64,000 nt of DNA, from IMG/VR virus record IMGVR_UViG_3300036766_002286; one strand, given 5' to 3'. This DNA is from a virus. Taxonomy: Duplodnaviria; Caudoviricetes. Below the pieces are notes generated by a model. The model ran no database searches, was not told the origin of the DNA, and saw only the letters and a list, made by a program, of their open reading frames with translations. Shown here in pieces: positions 4,797-51,428 of the stretch (position 1 is the first letter of the stretch; each line of letters opens with the position of its first letter). Position numbers and translations under genes: made by a program.

Positions 4797-6053
4797 ATGA
4801 ATAAGCATACTAGAAGTACTACTTCCACCTGCCCAGATATGGCAGGAGACTTGGAACGAGTTATATTTATAGCGCACAAGTGTGCTGCTGTCTTAAAAAA
4901 ACTAGGAACACATAATACCTACCCCCTTATTTGTAGTGACTTAGCTAAAAAAATAAAGCTGCTCAAAGATACTGATGACATTTCTCAAGCAATATGTACT
5001 GCTCTTTCCGCCACCGTGAATGACATTTTAAATATTCAGCAAACAGCCATTATACAACAACTCTCGAGCGACACCGACATTTCTGCCATCGATCTTAAAT
5101 GTACTGCAGGCCTAATTTCAGCTTTGCAATTTGATGGACACAAAGTAACCTCGCTAGGCGGCATCCAATCTTTACCAGGTACTTTAATAGTCTTATCTGT
5201 AATTCAAATTCAAGAAATAAATATAGCGATTCAAAATATACAAAACGGTTCTTTTGCCTCCGAGCTTACTTGCCTGTGGAAGACAGTAAAAGTGTCCGGT
5301 AACACTTTTGATGGGGTAATTATTGGGGAAAATTCAGACAGTTTGATATCACAGATAGGCTGGGATCTTATTCGTCTAGAAAGTGTAAAACACGTAAATT
5401 TAGTTTGGCATCAAGTAAATAAGCTTACTCGTAGTTATCATGATACTGAGCCAGGAGATCTGCTTACTTGGGGATGGCTGGGACTGCGTACCGCACTAAG
5501 ATATTATAACCCAAGATTAGGATTTGCATTCTCCACTTATGCATGTACTCGCATTGTCGGATCTATACGTGATGGCATAAGAGCAGAAAGTCCAGTTCCT
5601 AAAAGACTACAAGCACTCACCAGGCGTGCTAGTTTAGTAGAAGTAGAACTTACTCAAACCCTCGGGCGCATACCTACTCTAAAAGAAGTTGGCCTGGCAG
5701 CTGATTTAGAAATACAACAATTAGATCTCATAAAACGCACGCGTCAAAGCGCTTCTTTGGACGAAATGGCCTCAACTCTAGAGGGGCGAACTTCGCACAT
5801 GTGGATGTTGGATTCAACGGACGTAGAGGAAGTCGTCATAGGGCAATTAGACAAAGAGTATATAGCGCAGGCTCTAGATAAACTAATACCAGACGATGCT
5901 GCTGTCATTCGTTTACTAATCTTAGAGGGCGTGTCAACTGCTGACGCCTGCACGCTTTTGGGCACTACTGCAAGACAATTGCGAAAGTGTCGGGATCGTG
6001 GGATTGCTGCTTTACGTTTAGACCTTGAGTCAATGTACACAACCTCTAAATAA
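4797..6053 (+). CDS. Sigma-70 family RNA polymerase sigma factor (FliA/WhiG/SigF-like) with long N-terminal extension
   Basis: Region 2 'WLGLRTALRYYNPRLGFAFSTYACTRIVGSIRD', region 3 'LGRIPTLKEVG', region 4 'ALDKL...IRLLILEG...LLGTTARQLR'. Confidence 0.85.
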   Translation: MNKHTRSTTSTCPDMAGDLERVIFIAHKCAAVLKKLGTHNTYPLICSDLAKKIKLLKDTDDISQAICTALSATVNDILNIQQTAIIQQLSSDTDISAIDLKCTAGLISALQFDGHKVTSLGGIQSLPGTLIVLSVIQIQEINIAIQNIQNGSFASELTCLWKTVKVSGNTFDGVIIGENSDSLISQIGWDLIRLESVKHVNLVWHQVNKLTRSYHDTEPGDLLTWGWLGLRTALRYYNPRLGFAFSTYACTRIVGSIRDGIRAESPVPKRLQALTRRASLVEVELTQTLGRIPTLKEVGLAADLEIQQLDLIKRTRQSASLDEMASTLEGRTSHMWMLDSTDVEEVVIGQLDKEYIAQALDKLIPDDAAVIRLLILEGVSTADACTLLGTTARQLRKCRDRGIAALRLDLESMYTTSK

Positions 6054-12186: not shown

Positions 12187-13119
12187 ATGATAAATACACC
12201 AAAGCCAACAAAACCGCAACAACTAGGTATTAATGGACTACCGCTTGTTCCTATAACGAGTGCGGAATACAACGAACGTAATCAGGCCTTGTTTGCACGC
12301 AGATTAACAGTTGTGGCATCTCTTAAACTTGCACCCGGAAAATCTACGGCAAGTGTGCGAAAACATAATAAACTCAAAAGAGAATTAGAAAAGGTAGATA
12401 CTGAACTTGTGACTCTTAACTATGGTCTGGTACATAACTATGTAAAGAGATTCACATCAGCTTCTTCCAGCCACGATGCTAGAGATTTTGAGGGGGCTGC
12501 TGTAGTGGGGTTGATGATGGCAATTGGCTCCTATGATCCGACTTTTGGTTCAAAATTTTCTACATGGGCCTATAAGCCCATACAGCGCGCGTGTTTAAAG
12601 GCTGTTCGTGACGCGGATTTTAAAGAACTTACTACTGCTGATTTTGAGAAAAGACCTGATATATTACGTGCCACTAAAAAAGTTCAACTAAAAAACCCTA
12701 CGGTTAGTATAATAGATTATGCAGCTATAGCAAAAATATCAGGAGCATCTGTTGAGACTGTAAAACGAGTACTACATGCCCCTACCACAGATTCGCTTTC
12801 TCGCCCAGTAGGCGATGACACCACATCTGATTTGTCAGATACGCTACCAGATCTCGCCCTCGGTGTGGAAGATCTGGTACTTAGTTCCCATGAAGTTACA
12901 AGTCTTGAAAACTATGGTTTAACAGCCTTAGACGCTAGAGAATTTTTTGTCATATCCAGACGATACGGTTTAGATGGCGATGTCCCACAGCGATTGAGCG
13001 CGATTGGAAAAATGTTAAAATTATCACGTGAAGCTGTTCGTCAAATAGAAGCTAAAGCGCTAAGCAAGCTGAATCATCCAATCATTAGACGGAAACTTGT
13101 ACGTCACGGCCGGCCTTAG
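12187..13119 (+). CDS. Sigma-70 family RNA polymerase sigma factor
   Basis: NYGLV..YVKRF, GLMMAIGSYDPTFGSKFSTWA, region 4 'LSREAVRQIEAKALSKL'. Confidence 0.92.
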   Translation: MINTPKPTKPQQLGINGLPLVPITSAEYNERNQALFARRLTVVASLKLAPGKSTASVRKHNKLKRELEKVDTELVTLNYGLVHNYVKRFTSASSSHDARDFEGAAVVGLMMAIGSYDPTFGSKFSTWAYKPIQRACLKAVRDADFKELTTADFEKRPDILRATKKVQLKNPTVSIIDYAAIAKISGASVETVKRVLHAPTTDSLSRPVGDDTTSDLSDTLPDLALGVEDLVLSSHEVTSLENYGLTALDAREFFVISRRYGLDGDVPQRLSAIGKMLKLSREAVRQIEAKALSKLNHPIIRRKLVRHGRP

Positions 13120-13156: not shown

Positions 13157-14509
13157 TTATACTACAACTGTACTGTGAATTATATCCCACAGCTCATTTG
13201 TAGCATTAGCGGATTCAAGGTCATTTCGGTCCCCGGCGTAAATAAATGTTTTTGCAATGTTTGCACGAACATATGCCGGAAAGCTTGTTAACCTTATATC
13301 CCAGTTTTGAAACAATGTCCACAATGCTTGAGCGGCACTTGCCTCTCCAATGTGGATCTTTGTTTTGATGTCTGTTGCAGTAATACCTTTTGAACCTCGA
13401 GTTGCTATATCAGCTATCATGCTGCGGCTTAGAAACATAAATTCCTCACCAATCAACTTTAAGATATCATTTTGTGTATTACTGTTAAGTTTTTGCCCAA
13501 CAACGCTATCAGAATAACGAGTTAGTCTGCCTCTAAGATCTTCAAAGCTTGAAGATCTGTAGTTTGTAACATGGGCGGTAGTTTCCCCGAGAAGCTTAGC
13601 TATTTCAATGTCAGAAGGTCGCTCAAGAGTTTTTTCCATTAAAGCAGATTCAATAATACGAATCTTTGCTTTAGTTTCTACTCTTCTAGCTATCTCGCGT
13701 CCAATACCCGTAAAACTCGCAACTTCTAATAACGAAGGAGTGTATACTCCATATAGTCCGCATCTTTGTGAAATAATCCAAAACTCCAGGTCATTAAGAT
13801 CTGATAGATAATGCTCAAAAGGAATTTCCATTCCATTTATATCTAATTTATCAGCCAGCATGCTGCCCATAGTTGTTGGATCAGTATTATGGTTACCAGT
13901 AAATATAGGTTGTTCCAGAGATGCAGGTGCACCTTCAAATATGTGAAGTACTTTATCTACAGATAGCCCGGTGAATGCAGCAGTCTCTTCTACAGTAGGC
14001 ATTCTACTTAATCTTACTGCCATCTGTCCTTGAGCGAGGATAACTTGTTTGCGCAAATTAAAATCTGCTTGAGAAATATGTGAAAATTCATTGCGTCTGA
14101 CCGTTCTTTGAACAGCGCCTGCCATGAATTGTCGTGAAAATGTAGAAAAAGCTACTCCCCGATCTGGGTCATACTTTTTGAACGCTTCCCATAATCCCAA
14201 AGTTGCTGCAGACACATTGTCTTGATCTGCGTCAACACCGCGTTGAAATAAACGGGCTTGCGAGTGAATAAGACGTTCATTGATAATGAAAAATTCTCTA
14301 CCAATAGCGTCTAATTCTCTTGCTAATTTGCGAGATAAAGAGTTATTATGTTGCACCTTTTCAGTTGCAAGGAGCGCAGTTATTTCAATATAACGGCGCC
14401 TCAACGTCGGATTTCGATCGGCCCATGCGATATCTGTTTTAGATACTACAGGTTTCAATGCCACCCGAGGCGTGTTTGTACTATTTTTTTTACCTTTGTG
14501 TGTGGCCAT
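13157..14509 (-). CDS. Sigma-70 family factor with duplicated C-terminal region-3/region-2-like modules
   Basis: GLWEAFKKYDPDRGVAFSTF (region 2), RMPTVEETAAFTG (region 3), SLLEVASFTGIGREIARRVE (region 4), then ERPSDIEIAKLLG and ALWTLFQNWD..LTSFPAYV. Confidence 0.85.
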   Translation of the reverse strand: MATHKGKKNSTNTPRVALKPVVSKTDIAWADRNPTLRRRYIEITALLATEKVQHNNSLSRKLARELDAIGREFFIINERLIHSQARLFQRGVDADQDNVSAATLGLWEAFKKYDPDRGVAFSTFSRQFMAGAVQRTVRRNEFSHISQADFNLRKQVILAQGQMAVRLSRMPTVEETAAFTGLSVDKVLHIFEGAPASLEQPIFTGNHNTDPTTMGSMLADKLDINGMEIPFEHYLSDLNDLEFWIISQRCGLYGVYTPSLLEVASFTGIGREIARRVETKAKIRIIESALMEKTLERPSDIEIAKLLGETTAHVTNYRSSSFEDLRGRLTRYSDSVVGQKLNSNTQNDILKLIGEEFMFLSRSMIADIATRGSKGITATDIKTKIHIGEASAAQALWTLFQNWDIRLTSFPAYVRANIAKTFIYAGDRNDLESANATNELWDIIHSTVVV

Positions 14510-39332: not shown

Positions 39333-40610
39333 CTAAGATTCAACATCTAGTAAATGGTGGGATGTTTTCCCTTTTTGTAACAAAATCCAACGATTTTGCA
39401 GTAACGAGATATCACTGAGGTGCGTGTGCGCACCCAGCGCTATACCATTAGCTCGCACGCTATGCTGTGTTAGTAAAGTGCTTGCTTGCTTGTTAGATTC
39501 AGCAAGACCACTATTAACTAGTACGCGTCTAAGATCCTGAGGCACAGTCAGATTTATTTTAGTGCTGCCTATTTCCGTAGAAATAGTCTTTAATACCTCA
39601 AAACTGGCCTCTAGAGGATTGCCGTTAAATAGCGTGTCCACTACCGTCATAGCATCGTCGGAAGCTCGTTTACCATGTACAGCTAACGTGAGCTCGCAAG
39701 CAAGCGTACGCTGAGCAATACGAGTGTGCGGATTTTTCTTCTGAGCTTCTATTACTTGGGTTATCTCGTCTATATTTAACAGAGATAGTCGCGGCAATAA
39801 TTGTACAGCATCAGCATCACTCAACTGCATCCAATGTTGAAAAAATACAAATGGCGAAGTGCGTTTTGCATCAAGCCAAATAACTTCGTTCGTGGTTTTA
39901 CCCATCTTTGTTCCGTCGTTTTTGGTAACCAACGGCCAGGTAAGACCATGAACTAAAGCACCTTCATTTTTTCTGATCAACCCGATCCCAGCGGTAATAT
40001 TGCCCCACTGGTCAGAGCCTCCTAACTGCATTTCACAACCAAACTGCTTAAATAGTTGATGAAAATCGTTAGCTTGCAAAAGCATGTAACTAAATTCAGT
40101 AAATGATAGCCCGTTCTTACTGGCCAATCTATTTTTTACCGACTCTTTAGACAGCATTTGGTCAACAGTTATGTGCTTACCAATGTCACGAAGAAATGTT
40201 AAAACATTTAAATTATTCGTCCATGATGCGTTATTAACTATTATTGCTTGACTAGCACCCGGCTCGAAGTCCAATATTTGTTCAAACTGTTTACTGATAG
40301 AAGCTACATTATGTTGCAGTAAATCAGTATCCAGTAAATTACGCTCAAGGCTCCGGCCGGAGGGATCTCCCACCATGCCGGTTGCTTCTCCTATTAAAAC
40401 AATAGGAGTATGCCCACGTAGTTGTAGGCGCCGTAACGTAATTTGTCCTAGTAAATGTCCAATATGCAGCGAATCCGCCGTAGGGTCAAAACCTACGAAC
40501 GCACTAATTGGTGTACTCATACGCCCACTTAAAGCAGGTCGATTTGTTGAGCCCCGTATTAGTCCTCTAAGCGCGAGTTCGCTAACAATATCTTTGTTAG
40601 TGTTTTTCAT
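39333..40610 (-). CDS. tyrS: Tyrosine--tRNA ligase
   Basis: GFDPTADSLHIGH, EFSYMLLQANDF, QLGGSDQWGNI, KMGKT, C-terminal S4 domain. Confidence 0.96.
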   Translation of the reverse strand: MKNTNKDIVSELALRGLIRGSTNRPALSGRMSTPISAFVGFDPTADSLHIGHLLGQITLRRLQLRGHTPIVLIGEATGMVGDPSGRSLERNLLDTDLLQHNVASISKQFEQILDFEPGASQAIIVNNASWTNNLNVLTFLRDIGKHITVDQMLSKESVKNRLASKNGLSFTEFSYMLLQANDFHQLFKQFGCEMQLGGSDQWGNITAGIGLIRKNEGALVHGLTWPLVTKNDGTKMGKTTNEVIWLDAKRTSPFVFFQHWMQLSDADAVQLLPRLSLLNIDEITQVIEAQKKNPHTRIAQRTLACELTLAVHGKRASDDAMTVVDTLFNGNPLEASFEVLKTISTEIGSTKINLTVPQDLRRVLVNSGLAESNKQASTLLTQHSVRANGIALGAHTHLSDISLLQNRWILLQKGKTSHHLLDVES

Positions 40611-48700: not shown

Positions 48701-49297
48701 TCAAAGTATCTCTTGTTTATACCGTTCCCACCCATGCCCGGCTGTGAGGGGATCTAAAGTTTTAAATAAATAATTTTTCTTCATTAGTACACCAGGATTA
48801 CCTGTGAGTTCACAAATTTCTGCAGAACGTTTTTCGAACTCATAGACTATTTTCTGCATTAACTCTCGTTGCTCATTTTGCTCGTCTCTCTTATTTTCAA
48901 GTACAACACGCGCTGACATACATTCAGCAGTATTGTGATGTGCTTCCATTAGCTCCAACCACGCCGCAATCTTATCTCTATCTTCCTGTGTCCTTACCAC
49001 GCCGATGGCCGGACACTCAAATTCAGATTTAAATTTTATACAGCACGGAGATTGTAATTCTGGTAAATCGAAATAATAACGCAGTGTTCCAAACTTTTCT
49101 TTAACCTGATGAACTTCATAATCAGGGTTAACTGCAGCCAACCTCTGATCCAGACCGATAATAAGGTCATACCAACCGCGATCGCATCTAAGTTCACGCC
49201 CCCATTCGGTGGGTATACGTTGTAGTATTTGTCTAAGCCCCTCAGCGTGTTTGCCAGCATCTTTTGGGACAGGCATCGAACTAATTATTTCATTCAT
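48701..49297 (-). CDS. Phage-type conserved hypothetical protein
   Basis: GWYDLI...QVKEKFGTLRYY...SAEICELTG motif; CACTAT-7-ATG. Confidence 0.75.
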   Translation of the reverse strand: MNEIISSMPVPKDAGKHAEGLRQILQRIPTEWGRELRCDRGWYDLIIGLDQRLAAVNPDYEVHQVKEKFGTLRYYFDLPELQSPCCIKFKSEFECPAIGVVRTQEDRDKIAAWLELMEAHHNTAECMSARVVLENKRDEQNEQRELMQKIVYEFEKRSAEICELTGNPGVLMKKNYLFKTLDPLTAGHGWERYKQEIL

Positions 49298-49941: not shown

Positions 49942-51012
49942 TCAGTTTGCTGCAATCTCACTAAATTGTTTGGATCTATTTTGGGCTATTAGAGGGTCAA
50001 TAACCAAGCTGAGTTCGCCATTTAAGACCTTTTCTAGCTGGAATATGGTAAATTCTATTCGGTGGTCAGTTATACGGTTTTCTTTTACGTTGTAAGTGCG
50101 GATTTTTTCACTACGGCCTCCTCGCCCTACTTGGGCTTCACGCATCTGTGCCTGGCTGGTACGGGCTTCTTCTTTCTTTAATTTTAGAAGTCGTGACCGC
50201 AACACCCGCATCGCGCTTATTTTGTTACGTAGCTGGCTACGTTCGTCTTGAATCGCAACCACCAAACCCGTCGGTATGTGAGTAATTCTAACAGCAGAGT
50301 CAGTAGTATTAACTCCTTGTCCACCATGCCCGCTTGCCCTATATACATCTACTCTAAGGTCTTTTTCATCTATTAGCAACTCTGTTTCAGCTGCTTCTGC
50401 TAGTACTATCACAGTCGCAGTTGATGTGTGTACTCGTCCTTGTTTTTCAGTCGCACTCACTCGTTGCACTCGATGGGTGCCACCCTCAAAGCACATCTGT
50501 TCCCACACATCATGGCCCTTAATAACAAATATGACCTGGCTTATACCCCCCAGGTTAGATTTCTTTATAGACAGTACATTTGTGTTCCATTTATTATTTT
50601 GAGAAAATTTAATATACATATCAAACAGATCTCTAGCGAATAAGTTGGCATCTTCCCCGCCCTCAGCGCCCCGAATTTCAACAATAACATTTTTTCCATT
50701 ATTTGTATCTATTGGTAGTATCAACATATGCAGCTCTTGTTCCAGCTGATTAATTGTATTAGTAATAGAAAATAGTTCTGTCTCCAAGTATGTCTGTTCA
50801 AAAGAATTAGCACCAAGCATAAGTTCTTGAATTTCTAGTACAGTGCTAGCTGCGGACTTAAGTTTTCTAATACATTTTATGAGAGGAGTTCTGTGGGCAT
50901 AAAGCATAGACACTTCTCGCAACTTATCAGGATTCTCTAATATGGAGGGCTCGCCCATACTAGTTTCTAATGTAAGGTAATCTTCTATAATATCATCAAA
51001 CAGGGCATACAC
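49942..51012 (-). CDS. prfA: Class I peptide chain release factor (RF1-like) with non-canonical SAT tripeptide
   Basis: EIRGAEGGEDA, GTHRVQRV-SAT-EKQGRVHTS, GGQGVNTTDSAVR, RSEKIRTYN, TDHRI. Confidence 0.93.
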   Translation of the reverse strand: MYALFDDIIEDYLTLETSMGEPSILENPDKLREVSMLYAHRTPLIKCIRKLKSAASTVLEIQELMLGANSFEQTYLETELFSITNTINQLEQELHMLILPIDTNNGKNVIVEIRGAEGGEDANLFARDLFDMYIKFSQNNKWNTNVLSIKKSNLGGISQVIFVIKGHDVWEQMCFEGGTHRVQRVSATEKQGRVHTSTATVIVLAEAAETELLIDEKDLRVDVYRASGHGGQGVNTTDSAVRITHIPTGLVVAIQDERSQLRNKISAMRVLRSRLLKLKKEEARTSQAQMREAQVGRGGRSEKIRTYNVKENRITDHRIEFTIFQLEKVLNGELSLVIDPLIAQNRSKQFSEIAAN

Positions 51013-51027
51013 GTTCCACTGTTTGTT

Positions 51028-51075
51028 TCAGGTATCTTTTGTGTCTACCTTGGGGATATTAGATAAATTGCTCAT
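51028..51075 (-). promoter_or_regulatory. In-frame 15-codon leader ORF ending in UGA upstream of the RF gene
   Basis: CACTAT-7-ATG(51075) MSNLSNIPKVDTKDT-TGA-NKQWN-GTG(51012), all in the RF reading frame. Confidence 0.6.
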
Positions 51076-51224
51076 AGCTATTATAGTGCTGTGTATATTC
51101 TTTTAGGCACTTAACGATTCATTTTGCAAAACCCCGCCCATGCTGGTAGTACCGGACCCGTTAATTACATTTGAATCAGTAATAATAGCCGTAATAGTAT
51201 TAGGTATTCAAAAGGATTTATATT

Positions 51225-51428
51225 ATGACCCCCAAAGCAGCCATCTCCCTACAGGACTCGCGACTGCGTGCCGGCCAACGCGCTTTTAAAACGTTAGAAC
51301 GTTATCGTCCAGATCTGGCTGATTTGATTAGAGACACCAAGAATAACCCATTTTATGATGATAAAAAACTTCCCGCTTTTTATAACGAAGTACACAGGCT
51401 GCTAAAAGAAAACCCCACAGAGCAATAA
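51225..51428 (+). CDS. Phage-type small hypothetical protein
   Basis: RAGQ...RPDLAD.I.....PFYDD motif; SD aagga. Confidence 0.65.
   Translation: MTPKAAISLQDSRLRAGQRAFKTLERYRPDLADLIRDTKNNPFYDDKKLPAFYNEVHRLLKENPTEQ

Follow-up and report, generated by a model that had tools for sequence, protein, structure and literature searches.

A release factor 1 derivative with a remodelled decoding head and a putative in-frame UGA gate on a phage-like element

Introduction

How bacterial release factors (RFs) separate UGA from UAG has been debated ever since the tripeptide-anticodon proposal, and natural factors that break the dichotomy between RF1 and RF2 are, to our knowledge, almost unknown outside organelles. 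The RF2 gene, prfB, is autoregulated through an in-frame UGA in its own message, which is passed by a +1 frameshift at CUU UGA C with a Shine-Dalgarno-like (SD-like) element 3 nt upstream. Ito, Uno and Nakamura reportedly built tripeptide-swap RFs in 2000 in which reading of the second base of the stop codon depends on the first residue (restrictive if Pro, permissive if Ser) and that of the third base on the third residue; this model predicts broad reading for a factor with Ser-x-Thr. Here, we analyse a gene in 64,000 nt of viral DNA (IMG/VR record IMGVR_UViG_3300036766_002286; Duplodnaviria, Caudoviricetes), the whole of which is referred to as the window. The gene encodes an RF1-class factor in which the tripeptide is Ser-Ala-Thr (SAT), a second invariant residue of the decoding head is changed from Glu to Asp, and the reading frame continues upstream of the usual N-terminus, through a single UGA, to an ATG behind a leaderless type of promoter. 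We propose that this is a UGA-gated RF1 derivative of altered specificity, a reading to which, judging from sequence, we assign a probability of about 0.5.

The tripeptide-swap RFs differ from the window factor in being laboratory constructs in chimeric backbones, and we know of no natural full-length Ser-x-Thr factor that has been assayed. Later structures indicated that the tripeptide reads bases 1 and 2, and that other residues matter too (PMC2680264, PMC5776981). Among natural members of the RF1 family, the closest parallel for a shift toward UGA is mtRF1a of Scenedesmaceae green algae, whose RF2-like loop changes are correlated with the use of UGA as a stop (PMC6821328). Like the window factor, mtRF1a is a natural member of the RF1 family with loop changes toward RF2-like chemistry. 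However, its changes are other ones (Thr186 to Asn plus Ser206), it belongs to an organelle, and its mRNA contains no gate. In our literature search, whose coverage was incomplete, we found no account of a natural Ser-x-Thr RF1, of the Glu to Asp change or of RF1-type genes gated by read-through of a UGA.

Compared with bacterial RF1 (prfA; TIGR00019/PRK00591), the window factor has the same four-domain architecture, length of 356 aa, GGQ motif and third-base pocket, and it branches beside actinobacterial RF1s. It differs in Pro184 to Ser and Glu119 to Asp (Thermus numbering), in YNVKENR for YNFPQxR, and in a leaderless promoter, an extension of 20-21 codons and the in-frame UGA. As in prfB, a class-I RF gene has a UGA early in its own frame, and this would tie synthesis to UGA termination. 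Unlike prfB, the window factor is RF1-type, involves no change of frame and no CUU-UGA-C site, has its SD-like AAGGUAG about 17 nt upstream of the UGA, and would need read-through.

Two changes in the decoding head of an otherwise canonical RF1

The window RF scores 416.3 bits against the prfA model NF001859 (cutoff 400), 419.8 bits against TIGR00019, just below its cutoff of 423.25, and only 244.5 bits against the prfB model, which places it in the RF1 class. The Pfam domains PCRF (184.9 bits) and RF-1 (131.9 bits) are full length, and the solved Thermus thermophilus RF1 aligns across residues 5-354. The closest homologues are 55-60% identical and mostly 356 aa long, the named ones coming from metagenome-assembled genomes of Actinomycetota. 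A preliminary description of this DNA, made from the letters alone, had reported an RF1-like HRVQRV-SAT-E with an AGT serine codon. All that it states of the sequence itself proved correct, and the profile scores (416-420 bits for prfA versus 244 for prfB) bear out the RF1 class. The recognition loop reads GGTHRVQRV-SAT-EKQGRVHTS, with SAT in place of Pro-x-Thr (coordinates in Table 1). The GGQ motif is present, as are the third-base pocket and stacking residues Q183, T196 and H195 (Thermus Gln181, Thr194 and His193). At the tip of helix alpha5, Gly116 is kept and Asp121 occupies the position of Glu119.

The extent of these departures was assessed in an alignment that added 226 RF1 homologues (330-380 aa long, several phyla), in which 39 columns are conserved at 99.5% or more and 60 at 97% or more. 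The window RF departs from exactly two of the 60, by E121 to D and P186 to S (Thermus Glu119 and Pro184). Both the Pro and the Glu are present in all 226 homologues, and Asp at the alpha5 tip was seen in none of these, nor in any further representative whose motif could be read in a set of 149. The Glu to Asp change is thus a second change at an invariant site, absent from the preliminary description. Besides the two changes, GGQ, Gln181, Arg182, Thr186, His193, Thr194 and Gly116 are all canonical. As everything else in the conserved set is canonical, the protein has the look of a functioning factor whose pocket was altered deliberately, and not of a decaying one. Furthermore, about seven of the 39 invariant columns contact the codon, and the chance that two random changes would both fall there is about 0.03.

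In RF1 structures, U1 bonds to Gly116, Glu119 and Thr186 (PMC3418547, PMC3974865), and Pro184 packs tightly on the Watson-Crick edge of A2 (PMC3418547). Glu119 (Glu123 in E. coli) contacts U1, and a restraint involving Arg182 (Arg186) is reported to keep it from forming a bond with a G in position 2 (PMC3974865, which refers to simulations). Thus, both changed residues would flank bases 1 and 2 of the stop codon. The tripeptide is Pro-x-Thr in 119 of 119 closest homologues, and likewise in 119 of 119 matches of a second search using words from the motif region. The preliminary description had argued that SAT is not a single-base error; this holds, as AGT is two steps from any Pro codon and a Logan assembly from a sediment metagenome shows no difference across 50400-51200 (word depth about 40), although that contig probably comes from the same sample and is not an independent confirmation. 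This metagenome is the one DNA run in which the stretch was found, and no RNA run contained it.

A leaderless promoter and an in-frame UGA precede the gene

A recurrent promoter without an SD was recognized in the window, of the form (T/G)TGNNN-N16-(C/G)AC(A/T)(A/G)T-N7-ATG, its -10 box beginning with C or G. The pattern KTG-N19-SACWRT-N7-ATG has eight sites (17953, 20738(-), 40742, 43842, 49332(-), 51110(-), 52985(-) and 54119) against 0.18 expected, a number reached in none of 100 shuffles. ATG 51075 belongs to one of the eight, and the other seven open directly into open reading frames (ORFs) 90-558 aa long; of nine sites for CACWRT-N7-ATG, eight start ORFs of at least 90 aa. GTGCCT-N16-CACTAT-N7-ATG recurs unchanged at the gene next to the RF, at 49297. 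The leaderless signature noted earlier at ATG 51075 (CACTAT, 7 nt, ATG) is therefore an instance of a pattern that is greatly over-represented. Three divergent sigma factors encoded in the window might be the readers of this promoter. A scan for alternative RF promoters with the sigma-70 consensus gave only weak sites.

Start sites in the window fall into two groups, leaderless-type starts without an SD and SD-led starts with anti-SD pairing of -5.5 to -10.8 kcal/mol. The GTG at 51012, which two gene callers picked as the start of the RF, is in neither: its SD pairing, already described as weak, is only -3.3 kcal/mol and it has no promoter of its own. As the RF gene is preceded by a leaderless promoter of the element's own type, its mRNA most likely begins at or adjoining AUG 51075. 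Downstream of that start, the RF frame runs through MSNLSNIPKVDTKDT, UGA, NKQWN and GTG 51012, so that, as had been stated, it is continuous with the factor save for the one UGA (51030-51028), and full read-through would give 377 codons. A 7-bp hairpin encloses GTG 51012, to which we give no weight. A 67-aa ORF (51225-51428(+)), also called on the Logan contig, diverges from the RF promoter region, and the 149-bp spacer between it and the RF would carry both promoters.

A second member of the clade has a similar leader arrangement

An exhaustive search of representative proteins returned one, P0243, with both GGEDANLF and HRVQRVSATE. P0243 is 53% identical to the window RF and is encoded on a Logan contig of 1,983 nt (L041). 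No third member of the SAT/Asp clade was found in a profile search of 5.8 billion proteins, no relative in an IMG/VR protein search, no match by plasmid megablast, and no GGEDANLF in a viral scan. In trees, the two proteins are sisters with 97-99% support in the Shimodaira-Hasegawa-like approximate likelihood-ratio test, on long branches among full-length RF1s beside the actinobacterial group; they are separated by about 1.0-1.3 substitutions per site, with terminal branches of 0.27-0.86. Of the 60 conserved columns, 57 are unchanged in P0243; the other three show the same Glu to Asp, the same Pro to Ser (codon AGC) and V203M. Because both members have the two changes, these arose on the stem of the clade and have been kept since. 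Both also read RTYNVKENR (residues 305-313 in the window RF, about 50074-50100), adjoining the switch loop, where other RF1s read RTYNF/YPQxR. Further rare residues common to the two are L66, K150, R262 and S335. A full-length SAT/Asp RF clade is new.

The leader of this second gene is also informative. CACTAT at 551-556 is followed, after 7 nt, by ATG 564, which shares the frame of the RF and lies about 20 codons ahead of the canonical N-terminus; CACTAT-N7-ATG is expected at about 0.015 sites per 2 kb on both strands. This ATG opens MTVLHNVRGTQPHFDVIPCN, directly joined to LFALFSDIETSYAAIEHALQSPEVLANPV, which aligns with the N-terminus of the window RF, YALFDDIIEDYLTLETSMGEPSILENP. The in-frame UGA of L041 comes later, at 711-713 (codon 50, context GUC UGA C), and the same frame then goes on with LHGALKAYAEMSPAAL and the rest of the factor. 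The UGA aligns with residue K31 of the window RF and not with a Trp, and lies inside the conserved domain 1 of RF1, the prfA model spanning it in a single alignment over residues 21-371. As the sequence before the UGA is itself conserved RF1, this UGA is not the end of a mere upstream ORF (uORF), and the next start, ATG 744, would cut about 40 conserved residues of domain 1.

Thus, the two genes have the same type of leaderless promoter, and in both an ATG in the RF frame lies 20-21 codons ahead of the canonical N-terminus, exactly one UGA interrupts the first 50 codons, and TGA is the terminator. The preliminary description had asked whether homologues keep the upstream ATG and in-frame UGA together with SAT. 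The sole relative found has SAT, CACTAT-N7-ATG and one in-frame UGA, and the proposal of a read-through-gated RF is thereby supported in part. The UGA of the relative is at a different position, within conserved RF1 sequence, which argues against a uORF with re-initiation in that gene.

Short phage release factors also carry Asp and an in-frame UGA

A second set of UGA-containing RF genes was found on huge phage contigs. These encode RF1-type factors, not PrfH, of about 220-230 aa that lack domain 1, and 80 IMG/VR loci (L043-L122) were taken as a test set. The alpha5 tip is GGxD, with Asp, in all 76 that could be scored. Each of the 65 distinct genes has a single in-frame UGA, placed after the alpha5 tip and before the recognition loop; a Gly codon precedes it in 64 of them, and the base that follows it is A in 52 (80%), G in seven, C in six and U in none. 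The tripeptides are PPT (76), SPT (1) and PPN (1). Two further short RFs, L015 4077-4757(-) and L018 1254-1916(-), which came from the tripeptide pattern scan described below, have Ser-Pro-Thr, GG[IE]D and in-frame UGAs at conserved Trp positions.

The short factors resemble the window RF in the Asp of the alpha5 tip, the single in-frame UGA, the A that mostly follows it and their very large phage-like carriers. They differ from it in having no domain 1, in mostly reading PPT, and in having the UGA at a conserved Trp codon, where the window RF is full-length with SAT and has its UGA in an N-terminal extension. They are also split from all full-length RF1s by a branch of 100% support and more than 3 substitutions per site. 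Because they form a separate clade and none of the canonical RF1s examined has Asp at this site, the Glu to Asp change has arisen at least twice, each time in UGA-gated RF genes of very large phage-like elements. We found no published description of these short UGA-gated RFs in a literature search of incomplete coverage. A further short RF of about 195 aa (L007 750-1352(+), on an IMG/VR contig of 175 kb) has Ser-Pro-Thr with an AGC codon and no alpha5 region; no in-frame UGA was visible just upstream of it. Its neighbours are a SpoU-like methyltransferase ORF, two paralogous ORFs of 215-235 aa and a 392-aa ORF.

A model for read-through gating

We propose that a giant mobile element carries a copy of RF1 that derives from an actinobacterial prfA, has a remodelled reading head and is gated in its synthesis by an early in-frame UGA. 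70S ribosomes would translate 15 codons from AUG 51075 and reach UGA-A, where termination would compete with near-cognate read-through, the UGA of the message acting as a sensor of the capacity for UGA termination, whether supplied by host RF2 or by the factor itself. Where that capacity is high, translation would halt at the gate; where it is low, near-cognate read-through, probably by tRNA-Trp, would yield the full factor of 377 residues. In the window only, re-initiation at the GTG 15 nt past the UGA may contribute some 356-aa protein as a basal level. In the short RFs, the conserved residue would be restored if tRNA-Trp were the reader of the UGA.

Such feedback needs a sensor codon that the factor itself reads, and an RF1 limited to UAA and UAG would gain nothing from a UGA sensor; for this reason we suppose that the factor has gained UGA reading or, at least, discriminates less strictly at base 2. 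With Asp119 the Arg-Glu restraint may be looser, and Ser184 may relieve the tight packing on base 2 while adding a hydroxyl, as with Ser206 in RF2. On present evidence, the UGA is probably a functional gate, and true UGA reading by the factor is a more tentative suggestion, to which we give slightly less than even odds. A broader generalization is that UGA-reading factors derived from RF1, each kept at a steady level by a UGA read-through gate of its own, evolved two or more times among giant phages and phage-like elements, the determinant being alpha5 Glu to Asp, here with Pro to Ser; this is doubtful.

Several points weigh against the proposal. The clade has two members only, the second on a contig of 1,983 nt, and the two UGAs, which are at different positions and are not at Trp codons, could be independent recent nonsense mutations. 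The GTG of the window stands exactly at the canonical N-terminus, which may permit plain re-initiation after a uORF. Most short UGA-gated RFs keep Pro, so that Ser is not needed for a gate and may have nothing to do with reading UGA. The factor also retains Thr186, the residue to which structural work mainly attributes the rejection of G at position 2. UGA is normally read through at a low basal rate, and a host rich in RF2 would yield little factor by this route. Finally, folding of the leader RNA is not significant (z = -1.3), leaving no significant structure around the gate.

Alternative explanations

The simplest alternative, raised with the original observation, is a leaderless uORF that terminates at the UGA, followed by re-initiation at the GTG to give an RF1 of ordinary length, the common frame being incidental and SAT and Asp tolerated or mildly adaptive. 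The 356 aa obtained from the GTG match the length of cellular homologues, the gap from stop to start is only 15 nt, an in-frame placement has a 1-in-3 chance, and the GTG, which was the choice of both gene callers, has a weak SD and no promoter and therefore needs coupling. For the window, this explanation may still hold. For L041 it fits poorly, because the UGA is inside conserved domain 1 and a restart at ATG 744 would discard some 40 residues although the part upstream still fits the prfA model. Moreover, all seven other promoters of this type drive a gene straight from the leaderless ATG, and the explanation accounts neither for both changes being in the decoding head nor for the recurrence of Asp in UGA-gated phage RFs. 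We regard it as unlikely overall.

Decay would be another route to the same picture, with recent nonsense mutations or assembly errors in both genes, and with Ser and Asp arising under relaxed selection on a redundant, horizontally acquired prfA. The long terminal branches (0.27-0.86) and a TIGR00019 score just under cutoff would suit it. However, the two proteins diverge by 47% and still preserve 58 (window) and 57 (L041) of the 60 conserved columns, with the same two changes in both; both stops are UGA and both fall within the first 50 of about 377 codons; Ser is AGY in both genes, two steps from any Pro codon; and the Logan assembly, probably of the same sample, is identical at about 40x. 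Decay thus seems improbable. More improbable still, in our judgement, is that the factor serves as a weapon or adaptor in a conflict of codes: in a host that reads UGA as sense or terminates there poorly, the gate would be read through early, and the factor would then impose UGA as a stop, finish the TGA-terminated genes of the element, truncate host proteins and shut itself off. The logic of the gate fits this, and TGA ends 23% of the element's genes, including the RF genes of both clade members. However, genes of the element have their affinities in Actinomycetota (55-60% identity for RF1, and 46% between DnaB and a Paenarthrobacter plasmid gene), in which we know of no lineage that reads UGA as sense, and the 64-kb window encodes no suppressor tRNA. 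Phage RFs have been implicated in code switching (bioRxiv 10.1101/2021.08.26.457843), which also counts in favour of this last explanation.

Implications of the proposed UGA-gated release factor

The SAT/Asp clade is a natural experiment, with two changes at invariant positions, both in the decoding head, of an otherwise normal RF1. If the gate is real, it would be a second and mechanistically different case of an RF sensing termination on its own message, by read-through and not by frameshift, and would link the window RF to a larger and apparently undescribed set of UGA-gated phage RFs. Autoregulation of an RF through an in-frame UGA is known from prfB; a read-through version in an RF1 derivative with a remodelled reading head would be new. 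Should the broader generalization given above be true, this would be a natural, near-omnipotent RF of bacterial type with prfB-like feedback without a frameshift, and the element would control termination independently of host RF2. An omnipotent or UGA-reading factor, if confirmed, would also be of interest to those who build recoded organisms.

The element and its gene content

Gene affinities of the element point to Actinomycetota, from the identity of the RF to its closest homologues and from DnaB, which is closest (46%) to a gene of a Paenarthrobacter plasmid. Other genes in the window encode a ClpB-like ATPase, UvrA/B/C-like proteins, a family-A polymerase, a Toprim protein, NAPRTase with an isochorismatase-family protein, pentapeptide-repeat proteins and TnpB-like proteins; many ORFs have no family match. 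A tyrosyl-tRNA synthetase lies about 9 kb from the RF, so the element carries several translation genes. Neither prmC nor rpmE is beside the RF, unlike the usual arrangement around prfA. Recoding of UGA in the element was considered and rejected: the window is 90% coding in table 11, all three stops are used by its 56 genes (TAA 34, TGA 13, TAG 9), the RF is the only gene with an in-frame TGA, no two genes are linked through such a codon, and a tRNA search of the window found none.

Table 1. Positions of the release factor gene, its leader and other features in the window
Feature	Position	Strand	Remarks
RF1-class release factor ORF	49942-51012	-	356 aa from GTG; TGA terminator 49944-49942
GTG start at canonical RF1 N-terminus	51010-51012	-	15 nt past UGA; SD weak, -3.3 kcal/mol
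GGQ catalytic motif, intact	50317-50325	-	residues 230-232
Tripeptide Ser-Ala-Thr (AGT GCG ACT); Pro-x-Thr is the RF1 norm	50449-50457	-	Ser AGT 50457-50455, Ala GCG 50454-50452, Thr ACT 50451-50449; also in P0243 (AGC GCT ACT)
Asp121 (GAT); invariant Glu expected at helix alpha5 tip	50650-50652	-	Thermus Glu119, E. coli Glu123
In-frame UGA, proposed gate	51028-51030	-	context ACC UGA A; codon 16 from ATG 51075
Leader ORF MSNLSNIPKVDTKDT, 15 codons then UGA	51028-51075	-	matches 5' part of the 20-codon extension continuous with the RF in L041
Leaderless-type ATG	51073-51075	-	in RF frame
-10-like hexamer CACTAT	51083-51088	-	7 nt upstream of ATG 51075
-35-like hexamer GTGCCT	51105-51110	-	element's recurrent promoter; 16 nt before CACTAT
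Three divergent sigma factors	4797-6053; 12187-13119; 13157-14509(-)		
Tyrosyl-tRNA synthetase	39333-40610	-	about 9 kb from RF

Other variant tripeptides in release factor genes

The frequency of tripeptides without Pro was surveyed by a DNA pattern scan for G-x-H-R-V-Q-R-[VI], a non-Pro WSN codon and then x-T-E. Five RF1 genes were found in 185,579 species genomes (four Thr-x-Thr and one Ser-Glu-Thr), 22 stretches in 241 million metagenome records and one in IMG/VR, with no close relative of the window RF among these matches. Their Ser codons are TCN, one step from Pro, except in the short phage RF L007 (AGC); the AGT of the window stands two steps away. All five species genomes with a variant tripeptide have a second PCRF-domain gene, and a check for loss of RF2 was thus uninformative.

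Cellular RF1s with Thr-x-Thr were seen in L001, L002, L003 and L005 (species genomes) and in about 13 metagenome loci among L008-L029, and Thr would be a one-step intermediate between CCN (Pro) and AGY (Ser). Cellular Ser-x-Thr is found in few loci (L004, L012, L023 and L028), with single-step TCN codons. In the representative library, P0240 and P0241 are RF1s of 477-481 aa with an exact internal tandem duplication of about 120 residues over the recognition loop and GGQ, which may be assembly artefacts or real. Finally, two short RF-like ORFs, L025 9588-10112(-) and L027 954-1451(+), have SAT or SPT followed by an RF2-like RRHSS loop, and several in-frame UAG codons upstream of the latter suggest that L027 may be a UAG-recoded element.

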